From the NCBI GenBank assembly GCA_963764725.1, contig CAVXTM010000016.1, positions 96,001 through 160,000 of the forward strand: 64,000 nucleotides of DNA, in the 5' to 3' direction. How positions within the stretch are numbered: position 1 is the stretch's first letter; each line of letters begins with the position of its first letter. The stretch is from an uncultured Gammaproteobacteria bacterium (GTDB lineage Bacteria; Pseudomonadota; Gammaproteobacteria; JACCXJ01). Positions 1 to 11,369 of this stretch are shown here, one piece after another. A model generated the notes under the pieces. That model did not search any database. It saw only the letters and a program-made list of their open reading frames with translations, and was not told the DNA's origin. Made by a program: the position numbers and the translations under genes.

Positions 1-2241
1 CGCCCCTCGGACGCGTTCGACATGCACCGTCGCGCCTTGGAGATCCGTCAAGGGCTGCATTCAACCCACCCGGAAGACAGCATGACCGCGATCGAAGTCG
101 CGGAGAGCCATCGGTCGATCGGCGTCTTACAGCTTCGTATGGGCGCGGCCTCCGAAGCGGAGCAGAGTCTTGAAGCCGCGGTGCATCTCGCGCTGGATCA
201 CCTCTTCGACCCAGAGGTTTCCGGAGCAGGCAATACGGATCCAGTGCGCACCCCGATGACCATACTGCCAAGAACGGCGGCTCTAACAGTGCTCGCCGAC
301 TCGCTGTTGAACACTGCGATAGCATCTTGGTCCGAAGAGGCTTCTAACCGAGCCCTGTCCGTTGCGCGTGATCTCGCTTGGGCTAGACCCCTTTCGGCGG
401 AAGGAAGAACGGCAGATGCCTTCGCGCTTGTTTATCGTGCCCACATCGTTGGGGGTCTTGATCCATCCGAAGCGCTCCAGGATTACCGAAAGGTGAATGC
501 CTCCTTCGACGAGCTTCTGCGGTGGGATCCTTACAACGATCTCTGGCGGCGCGAATGGGCCGCGACCGGTTTAGTGGTCAGCGAGGGGATTTTGGCCTGC
601 TTGCAGGATGAACAGCAGCGCTGCAAAAAACTGGCCCCGGATCTCAGGGAAGCAGAGCGTCTGAATCTCGAGGCCATCGAGCAGCTGCGGGTCCTCGCCA
701 ACAAAGACCCCGGCAACGTGTCGTGGGGAAGCGATTTGGCATGGGCTCTCTCCGTTCGGGCGAAAGTCCTCAAGGAGAAAAAGCAACCGGATGAACGCCT
801 CTGGGCGCTCGACGAGGCCGTCGAACTCTACACGCAGGCAGCCATGGACCCCAGCGATGTGGACGCCCAGTGGAGCCGGGCGAACGCTCACCGAGACCGG
901 GCGGCCGCCTTGGCTGACCGGAACAAGACGGGTGCAGCCATCGAAGACCAGCGACGGGCGCGCGAAATCCTCGAAACAGTGGTCAAAGAGCATCCGAGTC
1001 ATCTCGTCTTCCGCGGTGAGCTTGTTCAAACCTTGGACGGAGAGATCGCGCTGCTTCCGAAGAACGGCGATCCAGCCGCCGCCGGCGCGCTCGAACGACA
1101 GAAGAAGGAGCAACAGACAGAATTGGAGCGACTCCAAGCCGTGGACGCAGGGGATAGCTATCAGAACGAAATCTGGACGGAGCAATGGGAGCGAGGGAAG
1201 AAGGCCGAACAGGACAAAAAGTGGGATGCAGCCGTTGACGCCTATCGCGCCGAGATCGAGACTCTCAGGGCAGCGGCGGCCCAAGAACCAAACCGGGCCG
1301 CAGTCTGGTACGCGCTCGCCCAGAAACTTTTCGCCGGAGCGCTGGCTAAAGCAGGGCGAGCAACCGAAAGCGTGAGTGCCTACCGCGAAGGTCTCGACTC
1401 GGCCAAGAAAGCTGCGGAACTCGCTTCAAAGAATGCAAAATACCAGAACCACGTACATGTGGTTCACGTGAATCTCGGGGCCGCCCTTCAGGAGAGCGGC
1501 GATCTCGAGGAGGCCCTGCGCGAGTTTCGTGCTTCCCTGGAACCGCTCAACACCGCGCTTCGACTCGATCCGACAGATGCTCAGTACCACGAGAACGAAA
1601 GCAACGCATACGACTGGATCGCTTCTACCCTCGAGGAACTCAGCCAACGCGAACCGGAACGACCGGATGCCCTGCGGGAAAAACGAGAAACAGCGCTGCA
1701 AAAGAGAGTACACGCGTCGTGGCGCGCCGCTGCGTTTTCGTCCGAGATGGCTAAAGCTAATAACTACCATAACCTGGCCATGGCCCGACGAGGCCTGGCC
1801 CTGTTTCTTTTCACGGAAAAAGATGAAGTGCAGGCAGCACTTAACCTAATGGAGCAAGCCCGATTGGACGTGGAACGTACGGTGGCGCAAGACCCGAGCA
1901 ACCCCAGGTATCATTACTACCTTGGCGACGCAGATATAGCGGTCGGCATATTACGGCGGGAAAATGCTCAGATTGGTGGATGGGAGGAAGCGATCCGTAA
2001 GGGCCTCGTCTCGATCGATCACGCCCTCAGCCTCGCGCCGAAAGAAGCTGTTTATTTGAAGCCTTACGGCGGCTATCGTCAGTATCTCGGCGAGGAACTA
2101 ATCAAAGATCACCGCGTTGAGGCCGGCCGAAAGGAATTGGAACTGGCGCTTTCGGCGTACGAAAAAGCGCAGAAACTTTCGCCGAAAGATCTGGAAATTC
2201 GGGAGGTCATCGAGGCGGTGCGAGTAACGCTGGCGCGGTAG
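1..2241 (+). CDS. C-terminal part of a large TPR-repeat protein (5' end outside window)
   Basis: Frame is open from base 1 to TAG at 2241. It has repeated TPR-like helical hairpins (NLGAALQESGDLEEALREFRASL, DPSNPRYHYYLGDA, ALSAYEKAQKLSPKD). Confidence 0.8.
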   Translation, partial: RPSDAFDMHRRALEIRQGLHSTHPEDSMTAIEVAESHRSIGVLQLRMGAASEAEQSLEAAVHLALDHLFDPEVSGAGNTDPVRTPMTILPRTAALTVLADSLLNTAIASWSEEASNRALSVARDLAWARPLSAEGRTADAFALVYRAHIVGGLDPSEALQDYRKVNASFDELLRWDPYNDLWRREWAATGLVVSEGILACLQDEQQRCKKLAPDLREAERLNLEAIEQLRVLANKDPGNVSWGSDLAWALSVRAKVLKEKKQPDERLWALDEAVELYTQAAMDPSDVDAQWSRANAHRDRAAALADRNKTGAAIEDQRRAREILETVVKEHPSHLVFRGELVQTLDGEIALLPKNGDPAAAGALERQKKEQQTELERLQAVDAGDSYQNEIWTEQWERGKKAEQDKKWDAAVDAYRAEIETLRAAAAQEPNRAAVWYALAQKLFAGALAKAGRATESVSAYREGLDSAKKAAELASKNAKYQNHVHVVHVNLGAALQESGDLEEALREFRASLEPLNTALRLDPTDAQYHENESNAYDWIASTLEELSQREPERPDALREKRETALQKRVHASWRAAAFSSEMAKANNYHNLAMARRGLALFLFTEKDEVQAALNLMEQARLDVERTVAQDPSNPRYHYYLGDADIAVGILRRENAQIGGWEEAIRKGLVSIDHALSLAPKEAVYLKPYGGYRQYLGEELIKDHRVEAGRKELELALSAYEKAQKLSPKDLEIREVIEAVRVTLAR

Positions 2242-2302: not shown

Positions 2303-2500
2303 GTTAGGTCGAGGATTGGCGCGCACACCGTAGGCGTCGGTGGGTGAATCCAGTGCTTTCACACCGGCCCTCAGTCCGACCATGCCCTAGCCACGTTTCC
2401 AATCCCCGCCACGACAAACCGAGCGTGCCGATTTCCAGCACTCGGCTTTCCGGTTGACTTCATCATGAGGCTTATGTGACCTATCCATCAGCAGCGCTTT
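2303..2500 (-). mobile_element. Group II intron 3' remnant (domains V and VI), no RT ORF
   Basis: Minus strand reads AAGCCGAGTGCTGGAAATCGGCACGCTCGGTTTG (domain V: AGC triad, GAAA loop, AC bulge; approx 2415-2448). Domain VI follows and ends CTCGACCTAAC at 2303. Confidence 0.8.
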
Positions 2501-2798
2501 CAGCAACCATGCTTACTCCACCTGCCTTCTTGATTGCGGTAAGGTGTCCGGCGGTCCTCGGATCCAGGGACCGAGAGACAGGTGCGGACGTGCCACTCTT
2601 TAGATAACTCGCACCAAGTGTAGCTGCATGCACCGAGTCCGCGCTGACCGCGGCGAGTCGGAGGCGGTGACGAAGCAGCCGTGCTGACTATCAGGACATT
2701 CCGAATAAAACACGACGAGCTCTCGCGCGGACAGGCGTAAAACGCAATGATGGAGAGACATGGGTTGCAGGGTAAAACGCGTAACTACTTGTAATACA

Positions 2799-2854
2799 TG
2801 GCGGAGAGGGAGGGATTCGAACCCCCGGTGAGTTGCCCCACAACGGTTTTCAAG
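2799..2854 (-). pseudogene. 3' half of tRNA-Ser(UGA), att-site-like fragment
   Basis: Minus strand CTTGAAAACCGTTGTGGGGCAACTCACCGGGGGTTCGAATCCCTCCCTCTCCGCCA gives anticodon loop, long variable arm, T arm and CCA. The 5' half is absent. Confidence 0.85.
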
Positions 2855-2989
2855 CGCGTAGCTGCAAAATTATTTGTTTTTTTATGTCAAGCACTTACAC
2901 GCCTAATTCTTTGATCCCTCGAAAAATAGCGTAACAATGATTAATCATATTGCGTCATTCTGGGTGTGACAAGGTTGTGACAAAAAGAC

Positions 2990-3372
2990 CTTTCCTGACC
3001 TCGCGATCCTCGGACACCGTCCAGAGCGGGATCTGCCGCTGCGACCTGGCGTCGGCGCCGAGCTTCGGCAAGCGTTCTGTCAGCACTTTCTCTGCGGCAT
3101 CGAGCGACGCAATATTGATCAGCGCCTGCACGAGGTGCTTCGTGATGACGGGGTCGAAATCGCGCGCGTCCACCCATCGCTGCGCGACGATGCGTGCGTT
3201 ATCGTACTGACGGTTCCTGACCAGCGTCCTTGCCTCGGTCGCCGTAATCGGGCTGCGGCCCGATGTCGGCGACGATCAATTCGACCGCGGCGCCGAGGTC
3301 CCACGGCTGCGCGTCGGGAAACTCGCCGTTCTTGAGTGCCTCGGCCAGCTTCCGTACCGCTTCGCTGTCCAT
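2990..3372 (-). pseudogene. Truncated, frameshifted N-terminus of third gene of the TIR operon (helical, TPR-S-like)
   Basis: ATG at 3372, 2 nt after the hydrolase stop. MDSEAVRKLAEALKNG... shifts frame near 3240 into ...RQYDNARIVAQRWVDARDFDPVITKHLVQALINIASLDAAEKVL and breaks off near 2990. Confidence 0.55.
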
Positions 3373-3374
3373 GG

Positions 3375-4363
3375 TCAGACCTCAAGCGCCTCTCTCAGAT
3401 GCTGGCGCAGCTTCTTGCCGGCGAGATAGTGCGTGATGGTGTGACGCCAGTTGCCCCAGTTCGACTCCTTCACCTCCTCGACGCTCTTGCCGCCGACGGA
3501 CCGATAGTCGTTCGCGAACCTCGGATCGGCGCCGCAGATCGGATCCATCGGATCGTAGATGTTGATCCAGCGCCGCAGGGTGGCCGCTGGGAAATCGACA
3601 GCGTCGCGCCCGGCGGCGATCAACTCCTGCTGCATTTCGCGAACGCCGAGCGGCGAGCCGAGCGTGATCAACGTATCGACCGGCGGGCAGTTGGCGCAGT
3701 TACGCAGCACGTCGTAGGCCACCATGGTCCCCATGCTGTGCGAGACGATGACGACCTTCTCGGCCTGGTTGTGCGCTGACGCCAGGTCGCTCAGCAGGAG
3801 CGAGCGCAACTTCTTGCGCACCTGGAAGCGTTCACCGTCGGCGCGAACGAATTCCTTGTCGAACAGGAAATAGTAGGCCTCCATGGCAGCCTTCTTGATG
3901 ATGGCCTCGCGCACCGGCGACGGCAGCAGTCGCGCGATCTCGCGATCGGCAGGCGCTGCGTCAACCGCCGCGGGCGCGGGCGCCAGTGGCCAGATTGGCG
4001 GCAAGCGAAGCGTTCGAGGAAAGCCTGCTCCCGCGGCGTCACGGCATTCGGCAGCTGCAGATTCGGATCGACGCGGTCGAGTCCCTCGCTCGCGAGCTCA
4101 GCCGACGCATCGCCCTCCTTCTCATAGTACGACCTGAGATCCGTCTCGTAGTTGGTGCCATAGAAGACATCGGCGTAGTAGTTGAGGAAGTGCGGGACAC
4201 CTTCCGTCGCGAGATCGATACCCCCATTCGAAGACGTGAACACAGACGGCATCGGGTCGCCGCGTTCCAACCCCCAGACCCACAGCTCCTTCAGTTTGTC
4301 GGGTGCGGGCTTCTTGGCGAGGCCGTGGCTGAAAATCACGCTGGTAGCACACTTCGCTGGCAT
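3375..4363 (-). CDS. Alpha/beta hydrolase (lipase-like), frameshifted near 4005
   Basis: N-half has the VIFSHGL oxyanion motif. C-half has VIVSHSMGT nucleophile elbow, LITLGSPLG, WINIYDPMDPIC and a terminal His (WRHTITHYL). Split over two ORFs. Confidence 0.8.
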
Positions 4364-4423
4364 GTGAGTTTCTGGATTGAGCTGCCGCACTTCCGCCGCA
4401 ATCGATGGGAGTATGAAATCGCC

Positions 4424-5740
4424 TCAGACCTGATCGCAGTCGGGCAAATGTTCGAACGCCTTGCGCACCAGTGCGCGCTCCTCGGGCGTAGGCTCAAGCT
4501 TCGCCATCAACCGGCACGCCTGTTTCCAGCTCGTCTGGTGCGACCCGGTCTGCGAGCGGGCCATCGCGACGGCAGCGTCGTAAATTCGAGCCGCATCTGC
4601 ATAGTTCTTCTGCATGAGCAGGACTTCGCCGACGGTCGCCGTCATCCAGTACTCGCCCTGGCGCGGCGCGGTACCGACGATCTCTTGGACCCTGGTCGCA
4701 AAATCAGCCGCTCGCTCGAGATCTTCCGGCGTGCCGAGCAGGACGCTTTTCGCCGCTGCGTTGATGCCGGTGTAGTAGTCGTCAGCGGCGAGCCCGAAGG
4801 CTTCCGCGTACAAGTCGCGTGACTGCTTCAAGTCCGGGATTCGATTCGAGCGCTCGTAGTGCTCCATCCAGGTCGAGGCATAGATACCGATCGTCTCCGG
4901 ATCCTTCTCGCCCGACTCGTACAGCTCGCTGACGATATCCTGTGCGGCCAACAGATCCTGTTCCGGCCCGCCACCCCGCGCGCGACGCAGCAGCGCGAGG
5001 GCGCGCAGTTGCTTCGGTCTGATCGCGCGCGGGAATTCCTTCTCGAGCTCCTGCAACATCGCGATCGCCGCATCGTACGCACCGATCTTGGTGAGGCCCT
5101 CCGCGGCCTTGCAGCCCAACGCTGCCGAGACACGCCAGGGCAGGCCGCGCTCGGCGAACAACTGCTGGATACGCTCGGTCCGGCCGTTGCGTATCGCCGC
5201 GCCGATCTGGTCCGCGGCCTTCTTGGACGCCTCGTCGAGGTCGAGCGCGAGGCGCACTGCTTCCTCGCTCATCGGCTGCCCGACCACGGCATGGAGCAGA
5301 CGCAGCAACTCGCCGCCGTTTGGGCCGTCGGGATAGCCGCTGAAATCCATGAAGATCCGCAAGGCGGCGAAGGTGGGGACCTCGGTCTGATCGACCCGCA
5401 CCGGAATGAACCGAAAGGCGCGCTTCTTGCCGCTCGCTTGCTCCATGGTCTGGTATTCGCGGCGCACCCATTCGGAATCACGCGCCTGGCTCGACCACAC
5501 CAGTATCCCCGCCTGGCTCGAGGACAAGGCGTCTTCGAGGCGCGTCACCAATTGATCGCCGCCGACGAGCACACATTGATCGAGAAACACCTTGTGCTTG
5601 TATCTGCGCAGTACGTCGTACAGGTTCAATACCCACGCACGGTTGGCAGATCGATAGGAGAGGAATACGTTCCATTGCTCGCCGCCACTCAAGGGGCGCG
5701 GAGCAGGCACGTGGCTGAGCCATTCTTCTGCAGCGTTCAT
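4424..5740 (-). CDS. TIR domain fused to TPR-S / MAP3K TRAF-binding-like (DUF4071) domain
   Basis: N-terminal TIR_2 motifs WNVFLSYRS, VFLDQ, SEWVRREY (catalytic Glu). C-terminal DPETIGIYA, YYTGINAA, YWMTATVGE motifs. GGAG RBS before ATG 5740. Confidence 0.85.
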   Translation of the reverse strand: MNAAEEWLSHVPAPRPLSGGEQWNVFLSYRSANRAWVLNLYDVLRRYKHKVFLDQCVLVGGDQLVTRLEDALSSSQAGILVWSSQARDSEWVRREYQTMEQASGKKRAFRFIPVRVDQTEVPTFAALRIFMDFSGYPDGPNGGELLRLLHAVVGQPMSEEAVRLALDLDEASKKAADQIGAAIRNGRTERIQQLFAERGLPWRVSAALGCKAAEGLTKIGAYDAAIAMLQELEKEFPRAIRPKQLRALALLRRARGGGPEQDLLAAQDIVSELYESGEKDPETIGIYASTWMEHYERSNRIPDLKQSRDLYAEAFGLAADDYYTGINAAAKSVLLGTPEDLERAADFATRVQEIVGTAPRQGEYWMTATVGEVLLMQKNYADAARIYDAAVAMARSQTGSHQTSWKQACRLMAKLEPTPEERALVRKAFEHLPDCDQV

Positions 5741-5896
5741 TTTGGATTCTCCGGACCTGGAGTCTGCGCCGCGTGTGCAGTAGGCGAGCGCACGCTCGTC
5801 ACTCACGCGATGCTGCGCGCGACCCGGTCACGATGCCCAGATTGAGCCACAACTTGCAGCCCTGACAGTGGACAAAAGTCGCGGTCGGTAAGGGGA

Positions 5897-5925
5897 AGAG
5901 TACGGATGGACCTGTGGGTTGTCAA
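5897..5925 (-). promoter_or_regulatory. Sigma70-like outward promoter in IS91/ISCR end region, facing the TIR gene
   Basis: Minus strand TTGACA-17 nt-TACTCT. Confidence 0.55.
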
Positions 5926-6079
5926 TGACACGAGCCGTCGGTCCAGGATGCGGGATGTTTCGGGCCCTTCAGCCATCCGAAGCCCGGGGATCCAGGGGTG
6001 TTTTGGCCTCTCGGGCGGGTGCCGGCCGACGGAGGCTGTCGGCTCAGGGAGTGGAACCGGGTGGGAGGGGTGGTACGCT

Positions 6080-6243
6080 GGGATCAGGCCATTTGAGTCG
6101 GTGGAATGACCGCGCGGGCGATCGGGGCGGTGCCCGGGCGGACAAGCCGAGATGAGTGAGGATCTGGGCGATGACAGGGGGATCTTCGATGGCGGCGATG
6201 ATCTTCAAGAGGCCGCCACATTGGGGCAGTGCTCCAGGTCGAG
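6080..6243 (-). mobile_element. IS91/ISCR-family transposase C-terminal remnant
   Basis: Reads DLEHCP(frameshift)LKIIAAIEDPPVIAQILTHLGLSARAPPRSPAR, the typical C-terminus of IS91-like Y2 transposases. Confidence 0.75.
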
Positions 6244-6338: not shown

Positions 6339-6488
6339 TTTACGGAGCACGACGTACGCGCTAAGTGTGCCTCCGATGCCGAAAGTCTAGAGCATGCGCG
6401 CCAGCTCTTGGCGCACGCAGATTCTCGCTTGACTGCCCGTGTCTATCGCCGCAAACCGGAACTTGTAAAGCCAGGGAAAGGGGTTTGA
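6339..6488 (+). pseudogene. Tyrosine integrase C-terminal remnant
   Basis: FTEHDVRAKCASDAESLEHARQLLAHADSRLTARVYRRKPELVKP contains HxxR, H and the catalytic Y. An in-frame TAG precedes it; it lies 62 bp from the tRNA-Arg 3' end. Confidence 0.85.
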
Positions 6489-6550
6489 ATCGTACAAATG
6501 GCGTTTAATCGTACAGGTGCTAAAAAAATATCGCTGTAACTTATTGATTT

Positions 6551-6627
6551 TGGCGCGCCCGGAGAGATTCGAACTCCCGACCCCCTGGTTCGTAGCCAGG
6601 TACTCTATCCAACTGAGCTACGGGCGC
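6551..6627 (-). tRNA. tRNA-Arg(ACG)
   Basis: GCGCCCGTAGCTCAGTTGGATAGAGTACCTGGCTACGAACCAGG...GTTCGAATCTCTCCGGGCGCGCCA, 77 nt cloverleaf. Confidence 0.97.
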
Positions 6628-6676
6628 AGGGCGCAGTCAAAGACCCCTGATCGGCTGCGGGTTGTAGCCGTGAGGA

Positions 6677-6769
6677 TGGCGGAGAGAGAGGGATTCGAAC
6701 CCTCGATGGAGTTTTTAGCCCCATACTCCCTTAGCAGGGGAGCGCCTTCAGCCTCTCGGCCATCTCTCC
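6677..6769 (-). tRNA. tRNA-Ser(GCT)
   Basis: GGAGAGATGGCCGAGAGGCTGAAGGCGCTCCCCTGCTAAGGGAG...GTTCGAATCCCTCTCTCTCCGCCA, long variable arm. Confidence 0.97.
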
Positions 6770-6832
6770 ACGCTGTAAACACCTGCGCTTTGTCTAAGTT
6801 TATCGCAGACCCGCCCAGTCTAAAGGTAGGGT

Positions 6833-7066
6833 TTATCGATGTTGTACATCTTTTTCTAGCTCTGGCTCCACGGCGACGCTCGCCTTGCCTATCCCCCCCG
6901 CCTGTTCCTGTTGGATCCGCAGGTAGATCTCCTCTCTATGCACGGCGATTTCCTTCGGTGCGTTCACGCCTACTCGTACTTGGTTTCCCTTCACTCCGAG
7001 CACCGTTACAGTGACGTTGTCGCCAATCATCAATGACTCGCCGACTCTCCTAGTCAATATCAGCAT
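6833..7066 (-). CDS. csrA: Carbon storage regulator CsrA/RsmA
   Basis: [48 protein letters not shown]; conserved position after lysC. Confidence 0.98.
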
Positions 7067-7219
7067 CTCCTGCCTCCTCCATTATCACTAGCGTACTTGA
7101 CGCCTGGAATTGTGCTTTGTTCCCCGCCTTAAAGCAAAGGGCTCCCTGCCCTACATTCACCAGTTTAACCCGTACAAACGTTAAATGCGAGATGAATTGC
7201 TGAGCTTTTAACTGCTTAG

Positions 7220-7362
7220 TCCTACTGTGTTACAAGGCGATCAAGGGATGCCATGCGAGGGGAATCGGGCGAGAAAGCGGAGTTTACACGGCAGTAAATG
7301 AGCATTTCGAGCCCGATGCCAACGAAGCAGGGTGCCCTTCAGCAGCTTGTAACACAGTAGGA
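7220..7362. mobile_element. 143-bp MITE with 17-bp terminal inverted repeats and TTAG target duplication
   Basis: TCCTACTGTGTTACAAG (7220-7236) and CTTGTAACACAGTAGGA (7346-7362) are perfect inverted repeats. TTAG flanks both sides (7216-7219, 7363-7366). Confidence 0.85.
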
Positions 7363-7372
7363 TTAGGTAGGA

Positions 7373-8596
7373 TTAGGTGGAACTTTTTTCCAGACCAAAC
7401 GCACTGTGTAAGGTCCGAACCCCAAGCTCTAGATACTTCTCATCAACAACGACGGAAATCTTGATTTCGGAGGTTGAAATCATGCGAATGTTGATGCCCT
7501 CCTCGGCCAAGGCCCGAAACATCTTGGACGCAATCCCGGCATGGGAACGCATACCCACGCCTACCACCGAGATCTTCACGATCTTGTTATCCCCTTCGAC
7601 TCCACGTGCCGCCAGATCGCGGGCAACTTTTCCAAGTGCCTCCAATGCCCTGTCATAGTCGTTTCGATGCACGGTAAAGGTGAAATCCGTGGTCCCATCC
7701 GCCCCGACGTTTTGAACGATCATATCGACTTCGATGTTCGCATCGGCGATCGGACCCAGGATACGCGCGGCGATCCCCGGCCTATCGGGCACACCGAGGA
7801 CCGTGAGTTTTGCCTCGTCACGATTGACGGTAATTCCAGACAGCAGGGGTTGTTCCATAGACGCATCCTCAGGGGCGATGAGCGTTCCGCCGCCCTCCGC
7901 GAACGAGGAGAGCACGCGCAGCGGCACATTGTATTTACTTGCGAACTCCACCGAGCGGATCTGCAGGACCTTGGCGCCGAGGCTCGCCATCTCCAGCATT
8001 TCCTCGTAGGTGAGGCGTTCGAGGCGGCGCGCCTCGGGCACGATGCGCGGGTCGGTGGTATACACCCCGTCCACATCGGTAAAGATTTGACATTCGTCGG
8101 CCTTGAGTCCGGCGGCCAACGCCACCGCCGTGGTATCGGACCCCCCGCGGCCCAGTGTGGTGATATTTCCCTTTTCATCCACTCCCTGAAATCCCGCTAC
8201 CACCACGATCATACCGGTGTCGAGATCCTGCCGCACGCGTTGGCCGTTGACGTCTAGAATGCGGGCCTTGTTATGAGCGCTGTCCGTCAGAATATGCACT
8301 TGCGCACCGGTGTAGGAGCGGGCGCGCTGCCCGGACGCTTCCAATGCCATGCACAGGAGCGCAATCGTCACTTGCTCGCCCGTCGCCAGCAACACGTCGA
8401 GCTCCCTCGGGTTCGGTCGCGGGGTGATTTTTTTTGCCAGCGCGATGAGCCGATCCGTCTCGCCGCTCATCGCCGAGACGACCACGACCACCTGATGACC
8501 CGTCCGGTGCGCCGCGCTAGCCTTATCCGCAACGGCGCGGATGCGTTCAACGCTACCGACCGAGGTTCCCCCGAACTTTTGTACGATTAATGCCAT
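7373..8596 (-). CDS. lysC: Aspartate kinase
   Basis: MALIVQKFGGTSVG, LGRGGSDTTA, TDVDGVYTTDPR and two C-terminal ACT domains. Confidence 0.96.
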   Translation of the reverse strand: MALIVQKFGGTSVGSVERIRAVADKASAAHRTGHQVVVVVSAMSGETDRLIALAKKITPRPNPRELDVLLATGEQVTIALLCMALEASGQRARSYTGAQVHILTDSAHNKARILDVNGQRVRQDLDTGMIVVVAGFQGVDEKGNITTLGRGGSDTTAVALAAGLKADECQIFTDVDGVYTTDPRIVPEARRLERLTYEEMLEMASLGAKVLQIRSVEFASKYNVPLRVLSSFAEGGGTLIAPEDASMEQPLLSGITVNRDEAKLTVLGVPDRPGIAARILGPIADANIEVDMIVQNVGADGTTDFTFTVHRNDYDRALEALGKVARDLAARGVEGDNKIVKISVVGVGMRSHAGIASKMFRALAEEGINIRMISTSEIKISVVVDEKYLELGVRTLHSAFGLEKSST

Positions 8597-8726
8597 ATCC
8601 GCCGCAAAGGCCGGCCACTCCACCTGAAGCGCAAAGCAACTGGAATACGGGCTGGCCTCAGAGCTTGCGAAGAAATCGTAGCGAGCACGCACACCCGCGA
8701 GGCGCAGTAGATTTATTCACACGCTC

Positions 8727-11369
8727 TCACGGCGCGATTTGGCCCCGAACCCAGTCGCTCACCGTGGCGAGCGCAGCTTTTAATTTGTCCGGTTCACTGC
8801 CGCCGGCCTGAGCAAAGTCGGGCCGTCCCCCACCCTTGCCGCCAACCTGTTGGGCGACGAAATTCACCAAATCGCCGGCCCTCACATGGCGTATCAGATC
8901 CTTGGCCACGCCGGCCACCAAGAGTACTTTTCCAGATTGCACGCTTGCTAGCACGATGACCGCGTGCGAGAGCTTATCCTTCAAGCGATCCATGGCCGCG
9001 CGCAACGACGCGGGATCGGCGTCATCGATGATCTCCGCGAGCACCTTGACGCCGGCGATATCGACCGCGGCCTCGGAAAGATCGCGTCCGGTTTGAGTGC
9101 TGAGCCTGGCGCGAAGTTGCTGATTCTGTTTTTCTTCGTGCTTGAGGTTCTGCAACAACTGCTCTACTCGTACGCCGAGCTGCTCGCGCGGCGCTCTCAA
9201 GAGATCCGCAATCTGCTGCAGTTGCTGGTCGCTCTGGGTCACCCAGGCGAGCGCCCCCTCCCCTGTCTGGGCCTCGATGCGACGGACTCCGGCCGCAACC
9301 CCGGTCTCCGACACGATCTTGAATAAACCGATGTCACCGCTATGCCGCACATGCGTACCGCCGCATAGCTCGACCGAGAAATCCCCTATCTTGAGCACCC
9401 GCACCTGTTCCTCGTATTTCTCTCCGAAAAGCGCCAGGGCGCCGCTCTCAAGAGCCTGGCCTACGGGCATAATCACCGTCTCGACCTCGCGATTGGCGCG
9501 GATCTCGCGGTTGACCAAGCGCTCCACCTCATGCAACTCATCGGACTCGAGCGGCCCCGTGTGTGAGAAGTCGAAGCGCAAGCGCTCGGGCGCCACTAAC
9601 GAGCCCTTTTGGACGACATGCGTGCCCAGAACTTGCCGCAAGGCCGCGTGCAACAGATGCGTCGCGGAATGATTAAGCGCCGTAGCGCAGCGTAAGGCCG
9701 GATCGACCTGCGCGTGAACGGACTCTCCTTCTCGTAGGACTCCCCTCGTAAGCGATCCGAGGTGCAGAGTGGCGCTGGCTAGGCTCTGGGTATCCGAGAC
9801 GCGAAACAGGGCCTCGCGTGCGCAGAGATCCCCAATATCACCCACTTGTCCGCCGGCTTCGGCATAAAACGGTGTTCTATCGAGAACCACGACCCCCTGC
9901 TCTCCGGCTTGCAGCGCGGGAACCCGCTCTCCCTGCCGATATAGCGCCACGACCCGGGACTCACTCTTTAACCCCGCGTAACCGGTGAACTCGCTCCCCG
10001 AGACGCGCAGGGGATCATCGGCCGCAAGTGCGGGCAAGAGCGCCTCCATTGCCGCCGGCTGCCCGAACTGGCTGGCCGCCCGCGCCCGCTCGCGCTGTTG
10101 CTCCATCTCCCGCTCGAATCCCTCCATGTCCAAGGTCAAACTGCGCTCACGCGCGATGTCGGCGGTGAGATCGACCGGAAAACCGTAGGTATCGTAGAGT
10201 TGAAACACGTCGCGGCCCGGGATCACGCTCCCAGACAGATCAGCAATTGAACGCTCCAGAAGCTTGAGCCCGAGATCGAGCGTCTCGGCAAAGCGCTCCT
10301 CTTCCTGTTTCAAAACCCGCTCAATGGCAACTCGTCCCTCCGCTAATCTCGGATAAACCGCACCCATCTCGGTTGCGAGCACCGCTACGAGCCGGTGAAA
10401 GAAAGGTTCCCGTAACCCGAGCCGACGCCCGTGCCGAACGGCCCGACGGATGATGCGCCGGAGCACGTAACCCCGGCCATCGTTGGAGGGGACCACGCCC
10501 TCCGCGGCGATGAAGGCGCAGGAACGGATGTGATCGGCAATCGCCTGAACCGAGGTCCGATGCACGGCGTCTTTGTCGCTTACCAAAGCGATGACCGCGC
10601 CCGTCAGGGCGCGGAACACATCGATATCGTAGTTACTGTGGACCCCTTGCATGACGGCGGCGATGCGCTCCAAGCCCATCCCGGTATCGACCGAGGGATG
10701 TGGAATCGGGTGCAAGCGTCCGCTGTCATCGCGGTCATACTGGGTAAATACCAGGTTCCAAATCTCCACATAGCGATCCCCGTTCTGCTCAGGGCTTCCG
10801 GGCGGCCCACCCGCGATCGCCGCGCCGTGGTCGAAAAAGATCTCCGAGCAGGGACCACAGGGGCCCGTCGCGCCCATGGTCCAGAAGTTGTCTTGTTCCC
10901 CGCAGCGCGATAGGCGGCGCGTGTCGACCTTGATCTCATCGAGCCAGATCGAGGCCGCCTCGTCGTCGTCCTGGAACACCGTGATCCAGAGCCTTGCGGG
11001 ATCGACGCCCAAGGACCCGGTCAAAAACTCCCAGGCGTAGTGAATCGCCTCGCGCTTGAAATAATCACCGAAGCTGAAGTTTCCAAGCATCTCGAAAAAG
11101 GTATGGTGGCGCGCGGTGTAACCGACGTTCTCGAGATCGTTGTGCTTACCGCCGGCGCGCACGCATGCCTGGCAGGAGACGGCGCGCTGAAAGGGGTGCT
11201 GCTCGCGTCCCAAGAAGACGTTCTTGAATTGCACCATACCGGCATTGGTGAACAAGAGCGTCGGATCGTTGGCCGGCACCAGCGGTGAGCTGGGAACAAT
11301 CGTATGCTCTCGCGCGCTAAAGAAATCCAGAAATGCCCGCCGGATCTCGGCGCTGCTCTTTATCGACAT
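8727..11369 (-). CDS. alaS: Alanine--tRNA ligase
   Basis: [61 protein letters not shown]. Confidence 0.98.

Follow-up and report, generated by a model that had tools for sequence, protein, structure and literature searches.

A decayed TIR–TPR-S, alpha/beta hydrolase and TPR-S-protease locus in an uncultured gammaproteobacterium, a candidate Thoeris-like signalling module

The window, a 64,000-nucleotide stretch of contig CAVXTM010000016.1 (GenBank assembly GCA_963764725.1; uncultured Gammaproteobacteria bacterium), contains three co-oriented genes, which lie on the minus strand and bear out the gene arrangement given in the original prediction: a TIR domain fused to a TPR-S domain (TIR–TPR-S), a PGAP1-like alpha/beta hydrolase, and the stump of a third gene (Table 1). 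A 60 nt spacer separates the TIR–TPR-S gene from the hydrolase gene, and the ATG of the third gene (3372) lies 2 nt past the hydrolase stop codon.

Table 1. Features of the locus, in positions of the window.
Feature	Position	Strand	Basis and remarks
Multi-copy repeat	2763..2984	.	Many matches in relatives, one in own genome; very high depth in soil-metagenome contigs
Stump of TPR-S + trypsin-like protease gene, frameshift near 3235-3265	3075..3372	-	Homology to full-length relatives
PGAP1-like alpha/beta hydrolase pseudogene, frameshift between 4003 and 3942 in variable linker	3375..4363	-	Two-frame tblastn
SHSMG nucleophile elbow of hydrolase, Ser codon 3735-3737	3729..3743	-	Read from sequence
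TIR–TPR-S gene, intact, 438 aa	4424..5740	-	Pfam TIR_2 + TPR-S
WVRRE motif with predicted catalytic Glu (E95) of TIR	5456..5470	-	Alignment of 24 homologues
Multi-copy repeat	5885..6242	.	145 nt upstream of TIR–TPR-S start codon; high depth in metagenome contigs
tRNA-Arg(ACG) + tRNA-Ser(GCU) genes	6551..6769 (Arg 6551-6627, Ser 6677-6769)	-	ARAGORN, Rfam, conservation in relatives

The stretch that holds the three genes is an accessory region. The tRNA-Arg/tRNA-Ser pair flanks it and lies at the border of a conserved csrA-lysC-alaS block, and among the matches listed for 20 relatives, positions 6414-9000 are kept in the 8 same-genus genomes and no DNA match covers 2985-5884, a comparison that is based partly on unpublished genomes (G001, G002, G005, G007-G010, and G012). 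Likewise, a sample of 400 genomes from the class yielded no full-length TIR–TPR-S homologue. The repeat at 2763..2984 adjoins the truncation point of the third gene and contains a tRNA-Ser-like 3' fragment at ~2799-2851, as shown by alignment to the tRNA-Ser gene, and the repeat at 5885..6242 has dozens of matches with 71-88% identity in relatives from three genera. A simple tRNA-integrated island was considered and rejected: no integrase was found among the open reading frames scanned in the 19 kb upstream, and the variable arm of the tRNA-Ser-like fragment is unlike that of the adjacent tRNA-Ser. IS elements are abundant around the locus.

The TIR–TPR-S protein is composed of a TIR domain (residues ~25-135; Pfam TIR_2, E=2.2e-22) and a TPR-S, or ASK1-like TPR, domain (residues ~160-430; PF20308, E=2.5e-12, 47.7 bits with a cut-off of 27.6), and is 100% identical to the 438-aa protein P0001. 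Its family comprises 800 database matches (552 were obtained for the second family), the best 120 of which share 60-77% identity with it, and PF13281 is present in many of the homologues. For the AF2 model of the protein (pLDDT 88.4), the best geometric match in the PDB is 5ulm, the central regulatory region of ASK1 (rmsd 3.7 over 272 columns). The gene is intact and its TIR carries the Glu of the WVRRE motif, both as originally predicted; V92 is invariant, at least 90% of the 24 aligned homologues keep W91 and E95, and the WVRRE Glu aligns with the Glu of WPARE in the Brucella TcpB/BtpA TIR chains (4lzp, 4c7m, and 4lqc). E95 is presumably the NADase residue, and, as judged by sequence, the TIR may serve either as the maker of a signal or as an NAD+-depleting effector.

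The hydrolase combines an alpha/beta model, a GxSxG nucleophile, and an Asp–His pair, as expected of a lipase-type enzyme, and its invariant catalytic residues are H12, G13, S212, D272/D275, and H309/H313; within the SHSMG nucleophile elbow, 24 homologues show no variation at H211, S212, M213, or G214. Pfam PGAP1 matches the C-terminal half above its cut-off (30.1 bits; cut-off 24.3), with weaker matches to LCAT, DDHD, Tle3, and Lipase_2, in agreement with the lipase-like enzyme of the original prediction, which had not noted that a frameshift splits the gene. The structural matches are weak (best Foldseek E=1.9e-4, TM 0.3-0.4, to the Nir2 DDHD domain and esterases), so the label “lipase” is a family-level guess, and the “membrane-lytic” action first proposed for the enzyme would follow from family resemblance only. 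The model contains a disordered loop (residues 126-148, pLDDT <50) within a helical insertion. From its ATG at 4363 to its stop at 3375, the gene spans 989 nt, which is no multiple of 3, and lacks an intact reading frame in this genome; tblastn places homologue residues 1-120 at 4363-3998 and residues 144-328 at 3941-3384 in a different frame, compared with 331-340 aa in intact homologues. A split but functional hydrolase was rejected, because the N-terminal piece holds the HG strand and the C-terminal piece holds the Ser, so that neither piece is complete.

Full-length relatives of the third gene encode TPR-S followed by Trypsin_2 (Pfam), which is what the original prediction had guessed for the lost gene, and the protease catalytic residues H367, D424, and S498 are invariant; a PDB search by sequence gave no match for TPR-S-trypsin. 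In the window, ~105 of ~545 codons are left, homology stops near residue 105 of the full-length relatives, and the protease domain is wholly lost. The TPR-S modules of TIR–TPR-S and TPR-S-trypsin are homologous (hhalign probability 97.2%, E=4e-11, 174 columns), and a Y[YW]xGINA motif is common to both families. A complex prediction for TPR-S-trypsin with the hydrolase scored 0.02 (mark 0.32), which counts neither for nor against binding.

The same three families recur together elsewhere, as the proposed survey of homologue neighbourhoods was expected to reveal: trios with TIR–TPR-S are found in 3 of 73 genome loci, namely L005 (TIR–TPR-S convergent with the pair), L037 (divergent), and L041 (co-linear), and in 7 of 77 metagenome loci (L088, L107, L129, L132, L145, L148, and L154), the metagenome examples having been reached via the hydrolase and hence being subject to ascertainment bias. 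Intact copies of the TPR-S-trypsin gene are present in L005, L037, L041, and 45 metagenome loci. The conserved unit is not the “sensor-TIR plus hydrolase” first proposed; it is the hydrolase with the TPR-S-protease, and TIR–TPR-S is a facultative third member. The hydrolase gene is followed by the TPR-S-protease gene on the same strand in 45 of the 46 evaluable loci (from 77 metagenome loci), and in 7 of 11 pairs with clean gene calls the protease start and the hydrolase stop overlap by 4 nt. The gene slot that precedes the hydrolase on its upstream side is occupied by the 7 TIR–TPR-S genes and, in 10 of the 77 metagenome loci, by a YpsA-like SLOG protein for which a PDB search by sequence gave no match; other TIR proteins occupy it in L135 and L139. 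When only evaluable hydrolase loci are counted, TIR–TPR-S lies upstream in 5 of 36.

With moderate confidence, the locus can be regarded as a copy, gained by horizontal transfer and now decaying, of a three-gene TPR-S/TIR signalling module of Thoeris-like type, which would act as follows in its intact form. Upon infection, a TIR enzyme would make an NAD+-derived nucleotide, the source being either the TIR of TIR–TPR-S or a TIR or YpsA-type SLOG protein encoded nearby. The nucleotide would bind TPR-S in both proteins that carry it, the two modules being homologous; binding in TIR–TPR-S would turn on or amplify NAD+ cleavage, and binding in TPR-S-trypsin would activate the serine protease. The protease would cut the disordered cap insertion of the separate PGAP1/DDHD-like lipid esterase, and this cleavage would release an active (phospho)lipase from its gated pro-enzyme state, leading to the death or arrest of the infected cell and thus to a putative anti-phage function. 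In favour of this reading, the neighbours of TIR–TPR-S include genes of defence type: extra TIR genes, patatin, CHAT–TPR-S, pYEATS, nSTAND1, SIR2, and toxin-antitoxin genes. The signal need not be made locally, since approximately half of the hydrolase–protease pairs have housekeeping or unknown genes as neighbours and no visible TIR or SLOG gene. The specific assignment, in which the hydrolase and TPR-S-trypsin are a protease-gated pro-lipase arm activated by an NAD-derived nucleotide from a TIR or SLOG enzyme and TIR–TPR-S is a self-amplifying signal source with the same receptor module, is tentative and must be called rather doubtful.

The two parts could instead be independent neighbours in a variable region, a single-gene TIR–TPR-S (sensor plus NADase) and a two-gene hydrolase and TPR-S-protease system without crosstalk, which is conceivable, if on the unlikely side. 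The two families mostly occur apart. TIR–TPR-S lacks the hydrolase in 70 of 73 genome loci; in a group of syntenic Acidobacteriaceae loci it is a solitary gene, with recR on one side and an MFS transporter gene on the other; and, by counts that derive from BLAST clusters with a Pfam scan of representatives only, no partner family lies within 7 kb of it in 33 of 73 loci. The hydrolase–protease pair, for its part, is found next to housekeeping genes, for example in L082, L118, L119, and L141. Against independence, TIR–TPR-S and the pair adjoin each other in at least 10 loci, which show three different gene orders, and the TIR–TPR-S proteins linked to a hydrolase are spread over at least 3 separate positions in the family tree, where the starred branches force 4 changes. 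The presence of the same sensor module in both systems, and of TIR or SLOG enzymes in many of the other upstream slots of the hydrolase, also argues for a functional connection.

The copy in the window is decayed and largely dead, with two of its three genes broken; the original prediction spoke of partial decay, and the decay is heavier than it described, as both the hydrolase and the third gene are frameshifted. Only TIR–TPR-S would still be able to work in this genome, as a solitary gene like those of many other genomes. It is improbable that the breaks are assembly errors and that the organism has a truly intact hydrolase gene, a reading that does not extend to the third gene. Both frameshifts are single-frame slips in G+C-rich sequence, and 3940-4005 is almost uncovered by public contigs, which barely cover 3063-4400 and show no indel at the two frameshift sites in that thin coverage; the best public read run matched 0.30 of the sampled words. 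Against assembly error stand the intact reading frames of the large neighbouring genes alaS, lysC, and recA and the occurrence of two slips within 800 nt of one degraded locus. The loss of the third gene is not a base-calling error, because ~440 codons, including the whole protease domain, are gone and the gene ends at a multi-copy repeat.

It is quite improbable that the module serves a purpose other than phage defence, as a device of soil bacteria for regulated cell death, stress signalling, or inter-bacterial conflict whose lipase acts on own or foreign membranes. In favour of such a role, many hosts are soil Acidobacteriota and Bacteroidota, pattern scans of viral contigs gave no TIR–TPR-S or hydrolase relative, a plasmid collection held no TIR–TPR-S at E<=1e-30, and the hydrolase weakly resembles the T6SS phospholipase Tle3 (Pfam E=3.8e-4, below the cut-off), but the hydrolase N-terminus enters the first strand and the HG motif directly, without a leader, typical defence genes are among the neighbours, and the tested systems closest to this TPR-sensor logic give protection against phages.

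The class to which the trio belongs has already been predicted. TPR-S was proposed, on computational grounds only, as a sensor of TIR-made NAD-derived signals (Burroughs & Aravind 2020, J Bacteriol 202:e00365-20), being fused to varied effectors beside TIR or SLOG genes; the locus likewise has a TPR-S sensor, a TIR in the same protein, and TPR-S coupled to an effector, and the partners TIR, YpsA, LSDAT, patatin, and caspase, which a citing preprint names from that data set, were recovered in the surveyed loci. In 9 loci of Bacteroidota, TIR–TPR-S is next to a CHAT–TPR-S gene that has a small partner upstream. Given that earlier proposal and the TPR-bearing effector of Type VIII Thoeris, the word “undescribed” in the original prediction was too strong. 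The gene combination itself has no name in PADLOC v2 or NCBIfam, which return domain-level TIR, trypsin, or patatin matches only and contain no system model for the trio. The hydrolase and TPR-S-trypsin pair is unnamed in the passage citing Burroughs & Aravind, and the literature searched yielded no experiment on the combination of TIR–TPR-S, hydrolase, and TPR-S-protease. None of the papers listed for DUF4071, PF13281, and PF20308 concerns bacterial defence, the term “TPR-S” is absent from Kaur et al. 2020 and 2021, and PMC13069673 contains nothing relevant.

The claimed mismatch to CBASS and Pycsar was upheld, as no CD-NTase or pyrimidine cyclase match was obtained in the locus (PADLOC, Pfam). 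In comparison with Thoeris, the locus contains neither a stand-alone TIR gene of the ThsB kind, its only TIR being fused to TPR-S (PADLOC ThsB models match weakly, E=6.3e-4 at best), nor a ThsI CMP-hydrolase domain; stand-alone TIR genes are present in some homologous loci. In Type VIII Thoeris, validated in 2025 and found mostly in Pseudomonadota, the TIR protein ThsB is paired with ThsI, in which a CMP hydrolase is joined to a TPR domain; the authors presume that this TPR perceives cADPR and link it to the Aravind prediction, and their Table S1 contains 29 putative types (10.64898/2025.12.03.692087, Yirmiya et al.). Both systems have an effector with a TPR domain, whereas the window genes encode no CMP hydrolase (Pfam), the TIR is fused to TPR-S, and the effector arm is a protease with a separate hydrolase. 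TPR-S-trypsin would fit the role of a Thoeris effector, that is, a signal-binding protein encoded beside a TIR gene, although it is truncated here and its binding is a prediction only. Type IV Thoeris (TIR and a caspase-like protease, N7-cADPR) shares with the proposed mechanism a TIR signal that switches on a protease effector; the present module differs by having a trypsin-type protease that comes with a second enzyme.

Other systems resemble parts of the module. BcTir/Tpr of Bacillus cereus protects E. coli against phages (10.1101/2023.05.26.542521, Liu et al., preprint) and also has an N-terminal NAD-cleaving domain and a C-terminal TPR in a protein that works with a TIR partner, but it consists of two genes with a catalytically dead separate TIR and includes no hydrolase or protease. 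Gated pro-nucleases paired with trypsin-like proteases occur in Hachiman, AVAST, Lamassu, and DRT (10.1101/2025.07.28.667249), with the same separate upstream effector gene, a downstream protease fused to the sensing or core module, and disordered insertions in the effector as the gate; these are MBL-fold nucleases, in contrast to the alpha/beta lipid-esterase-like hydrolase and TPR-S sensor here, for which cleavage is predicted. The TPR fold of the sensor module also matches the central regulatory region of ASK1 (MAP3K5; Pfam MAP3K_TRAF_bd; 5ulm and 8qgy), a likeness of fold to an animal kinase scaffold.

With two of its three genes broken, the copy in the window offers little for direct use; intact trios in the cultured strains Pseudomonas nabeulensis E10B (L041) and Povalibacter uvarum DSM 26723 (L005) are ready material. 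The families are large (800 and 552 database matches) and unusually conserved, at ~60-77% identity across phyla for the best 120 of the 800 TIR–TPR-S matches. If the proposed mechanism is true, TIR/NAD-derived immune signalling would gain a two-step effector, a sensor-protease and then a pro-lipase, and proteolytic gating would extend from nucleases to membrane-targeting enzymes. The pro-lipase arm would then be the lipid-targeting counterpart of the gated pro-nuclease and protease pairs and a new effector logic for Thoeris-like signalling, and TPR-S, a bacterial relative of the ASK1 regulatory TPR, would be a shared receiver on several effectors of one locus.

All three genes are encoded on the minus strand, one behind the other, from 5740 to ~2990; the observation in the original prediction is confirmed and sharpened. 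The first encodes a TIR–TPR-S protein that matches TIR_2 (E=2.2e-22) and TPR-S (E=2.5e-12) in Pfam, and the Glu of its WVRRE motif and that of WPARE in the TIR domain structures of Brucella TcpB/BtpA occupy the same alignment column, a position that we take to be that of the NADase Glu of TIR domains. The AlphaFold model of the protein is confident (pLDDT 88.4, pTM 0.87), and the best superposition of its helical half is with the central regulatory region of ASK1 (5ulm, rmsd 3.7, 272 columns; also 8qgy), in agreement with the earlier “DUF4071-like” label. The second gene, encoding an alpha/beta hydrolase (PGAP1 over its Pfam cut-off; LCAT, DDHD, Tle3, and Lipase_2 weaker), is broken: residues 1–120 of an intact homologue are found in one frame and residues 144–328 in another, and the reading frame slips somewhere from 4003 to 3942, within the variable linker of the hydrolase family. 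In the third gene, the frame changes near 3235–3265, and similarity to relatives is wholly lost beyond approximately residue 105 of those relatives. No second copy of the hydrolase or third gene was found in the organism's own assembly (completeness 96.9%), and two of the three genes are dead in this genome.

Features of the locus and its surroundings (window positions; L161, own genome upstream of the window)
Feature	Position	Strand	Remarks
TIR–TPR-S gene	4424-5740	-	438 aa, intact reading frame
WVRRE motif	5456-5470	-	Glu conserved in at least 90% among 24 homologues
Hydrolase gene	ATG 4363, stop 3375	-	989 nt; HG strand, SHSMG, Asp/His motifs of alpha/beta hydrolase
SHSMG motif	3729-3743	-	
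Third gene (protease stump)	ATG 3372	-	starts 2 nt past hydrolase stop
tRNA-Arg + tRNA-Ser	6551-6769		
Multi-copy repeat, TIR–TPR-S side	5885-6242		small ORF 6044-6208, no Pfam match
Multi-copy repeat, third-gene side	2763-2984		~50-nt tRNA-Ser-like 3' end, about 2799-2851
All-TPR protein gene	22-2241	+	739 aa
Group II intron catalytic domain	2330-2450	-	Rfam RF00029, 44.9 bits (gathering score 40)
csrA-aspartokinase gene intergenic repeat	7212-7366		three further copies in own genome
IS110 pair, L161	6278-7702 and 14815-16239	+ and -	
IS3 pair, L161	8830-9690 and 13907-14770	+ and -	

DNA conservation of 86–97% extends from ~6414–6869 onward to 9000 in all eight same-genus genomes searched, and none of the matches listed for 20 relatives covers 2985–5884, a comparison that rests partly on unpublished genomes (G001, G002, G005, G007–G010, and G012). 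None of 400 further genomes sampled from the class yielded a full-length TIR–TPR-S homologue (E≤1e-60). A multi-copy repeat lies on either side of the trio remnant. The repeat on the TIR–TPR-S side, which may be an IS end, a MITE, or another element, has dozens of matches (71–88% identity) among relatives from three genera and is represented at very high depth in soil-metagenome contigs; the other, right beside which the third gene is cut off, retains a UGA-type anticodon-loop remnant and has the appearance of an ancient attachment site together with the end of an element. Transposase genes in the 19 kb upstream comprise two of IS110, two of IS3 type, and one of ISL3; a PIN gene is also present there, and no tyrosine integrase was found among the Pfam-scanned ORFs of this stretch. 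The relatives' DNA comparison, the repeats, and the transposase genes therefore identify the locus as accessory DNA beside tRNA genes, and decay is to be expected in a stretch so rich in IS elements.

The IS110 and IS3-type genes upstream of the window (L161 6278–16239) form two inverted pairs; they belong either to a large duplication in inverted orientation or to a composite element. The accessory stretch also encodes an all-TPR protein with no PADLOC match and no DNA match listed in 20 relatives. The group II intron domain lacks an adjacent reverse-transcriptase ORF and is probably what remains of the 3' part of an intron, and 2299–2522 matches a contig of the relative G004 at 94%. The short repeat near csrA occurs at many places in same-genus genomes (88–98% identity).

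The TIR–TPR-S family has 800 database matches among 8000 candidates scored, the best 120 of which share 60–77% identity, span 429–508 aa, and come from many phyla. A pattern scan with one genome per species yielded 73 TIR–TPR-S loci, only three of which contain the hydrolase: Povalibacter uvarum (L005), a deltaproteobacterial MAG (L037), and Pseudomonas nabeulensis (L041). At each of these three loci, a ~545-aa protein with TPR-S and Trypsin_2 domains is encoded after the hydrolase, and gene order relative to TIR–TPR-S differs among all three. The window stump matches these proteins, and the guess that the lost third gene was a TPR-S-protease was thus correct. The hydrolase family has 552 database matches (best 120 at 57–75% identity), and a metagenome scan seeded with it yielded 77 loci. 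Of the 46 loci with a complete hydrolase and 600 nt or more of downstream sequence, 45 have the TPR-S-trypsin gene directly downstream (sole exception L113). There is a 4-nt overlap between its start and the hydrolase stop in 7 of the 11 pairs with clean gene calls. The candidate catalytic triad of the hydrolases is invariant in the homologue alignment, as are His367, Asp424, and Ser498 in the proteases. This adjacency, the overlaps, and the invariant catalytic residues therefore define hydrolase plus TPR-S-protease as the conserved unit, and not the sensor-TIR and hydrolase core proposed originally.

The same-strand gene upstream of the hydrolase varies among the 77 metagenome loci. It is TIR–TPR-S in seven (L088, L107, L129, L132, L145, L148, and L154; L132 and L154 are identical) and a ~184-aa protein without a Pfam name in ten, the latter grouping with YpsA-type SLOG proteins in a protein atlas (score 0.90), which serves as a lead only. 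Of the 36 loci whose upstream sequence spans 1400 nt or more, five have TIR–TPR-S, five the YpsA-like gene, and 26 another gene; a Pfam scan of 19 flanking ORFs from 13 of these 26 placed TIR proteins (L135 and L139), a TPR-S protein (L112), SLATT (L116), a patatin protein (L089), or plain housekeeping genes (L082, L118, L119, and L141) beside the pair. The TIR–TPR-S and protease families carry homologous TPR-S modules (hhalign probability 97.2%, E=4e-11, 174 columns) with a Y[YW]xGINA motif in common. In a quick maximum-likelihood tree of 66 TIR–TPR-S proteins (rows below 380 aa left out), hydrolase-linked members are scattered over three or more separate positions, and four changes are forced by starred branches, a picture biased by five such members having been found via the hydrolase.

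Neighbours of TIR–TPR-S at the 73 genome loci, counted as BLAST clusters within the fetched ±7 kb with Pfam on cluster representatives only, include a patatin gene (28/73), a YpsA-like or LSDAT SLOG gene (18/73), a further TPR-S gene (22/73; CHAT–TPR-S, abhydrolase–TPR-S, TPR-S–patatin, TPR-S–trypsin, or unknown-domain–TPR-S), and a further TIR gene (16/73), and 33/73 loci have none of these. The patatin-bearing loci, most of them from Bacteroidota, make up a single clade in the tree, and vertical synteny may explain this link. The group of 33 includes a syntenic Acidobacteriaceae set with a lone TIR–TPR-S between recR and an MFS transporter gene. Additional neighbours include pYEATS, nSTAND1, SIR2, ParA-TIR, PIN/RES toxins, integrase, and Tn7 TnsD. 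In nine Bacteroidota loci (L028, L029, L034, L036, L038, L039, L042, L043, and L045), TIR–TPR-S is followed by an unnamed ~239-aa gene and a CHAT–TPR-S gene, an arrangement resembling type IV Thoeris, with patatin, a YpsA-like gene, and a ThsB-like TIR frequently in front of it; these loci are multi-effector TPR-S islands. At L018, abhydrolase–TPR-S and a TIR gene accompany TIR–TPR-S, which is separated by zero branch length from that of L033 though the contigs were binned to Acidimicrobiia and Gammaproteobacteria, pointing to recent transfer or a binning error. At L048 (1163–3076, minus strand), Trypsin_2 and a non-specific endonuclease (Endonuclease_NS) are fused in one protein adjoining TIR–TPR-S, another protease-effector combination.

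By analogy with tested systems, we infer that an NAD-derived nucleotide, made by TIR or SLOG, would bind TPR-S; binding in TIR–TPR-S would drive or amplify NAD+ cleavage, binding in TPR-S-trypsin would release protease activity, and the protease would cut a gate within the hydrolase. In the structural model of the hydrolase (pLDDT 72.8), residues 126–148 form a disordered loop within a helical insertion, the same variable linker as the window frameshift site, and a direct precedent for such a putative protease-cut gate on an effector exists in pairs of pro-nuclease and trypsin-like protease (bioRxiv 10.1101/2025.07.28.667249). The hydrolase fold finds only weak matches, first the DDHD domain of Nir2 and next esterases and lipases (E from 1.9e-4, TM 0.3–0.4), and a lipid substrate is therefore a family-level suggestion.

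Thoeris types V–XI have been validated by Yirmiya et al., whose Table S1 reportedly holds 29 putative Thoeris types including “phospholipases, and hydrolases” (10.64898/2025.12.03.692087). According to Liu et al., BcTir/Tpr protects against phage, and Tpr-centred assemblies with TIR, YspA, patatin, LSDAT, calcineurin, and caspase are listed there from Burroughs & Aravind data, a list in which PGAP1-like hydrolase and trypsin are unnamed (10.1101/2023.05.26.542521). No paper on the trio was found in a literature search whose reach did not extend to Burroughs & Aravind 2020, and neither the hydrolase nor the TPR-S-protease is represented by a model in PADLOC v2 or NCBIfam. The trio of the original prediction is thus real and recurrent, as was its protease guess sound, but its core was mis-assigned and “undescribed” was an overstatement for the class to which the locus belongs; the locus is filed as a variant of an already known class.
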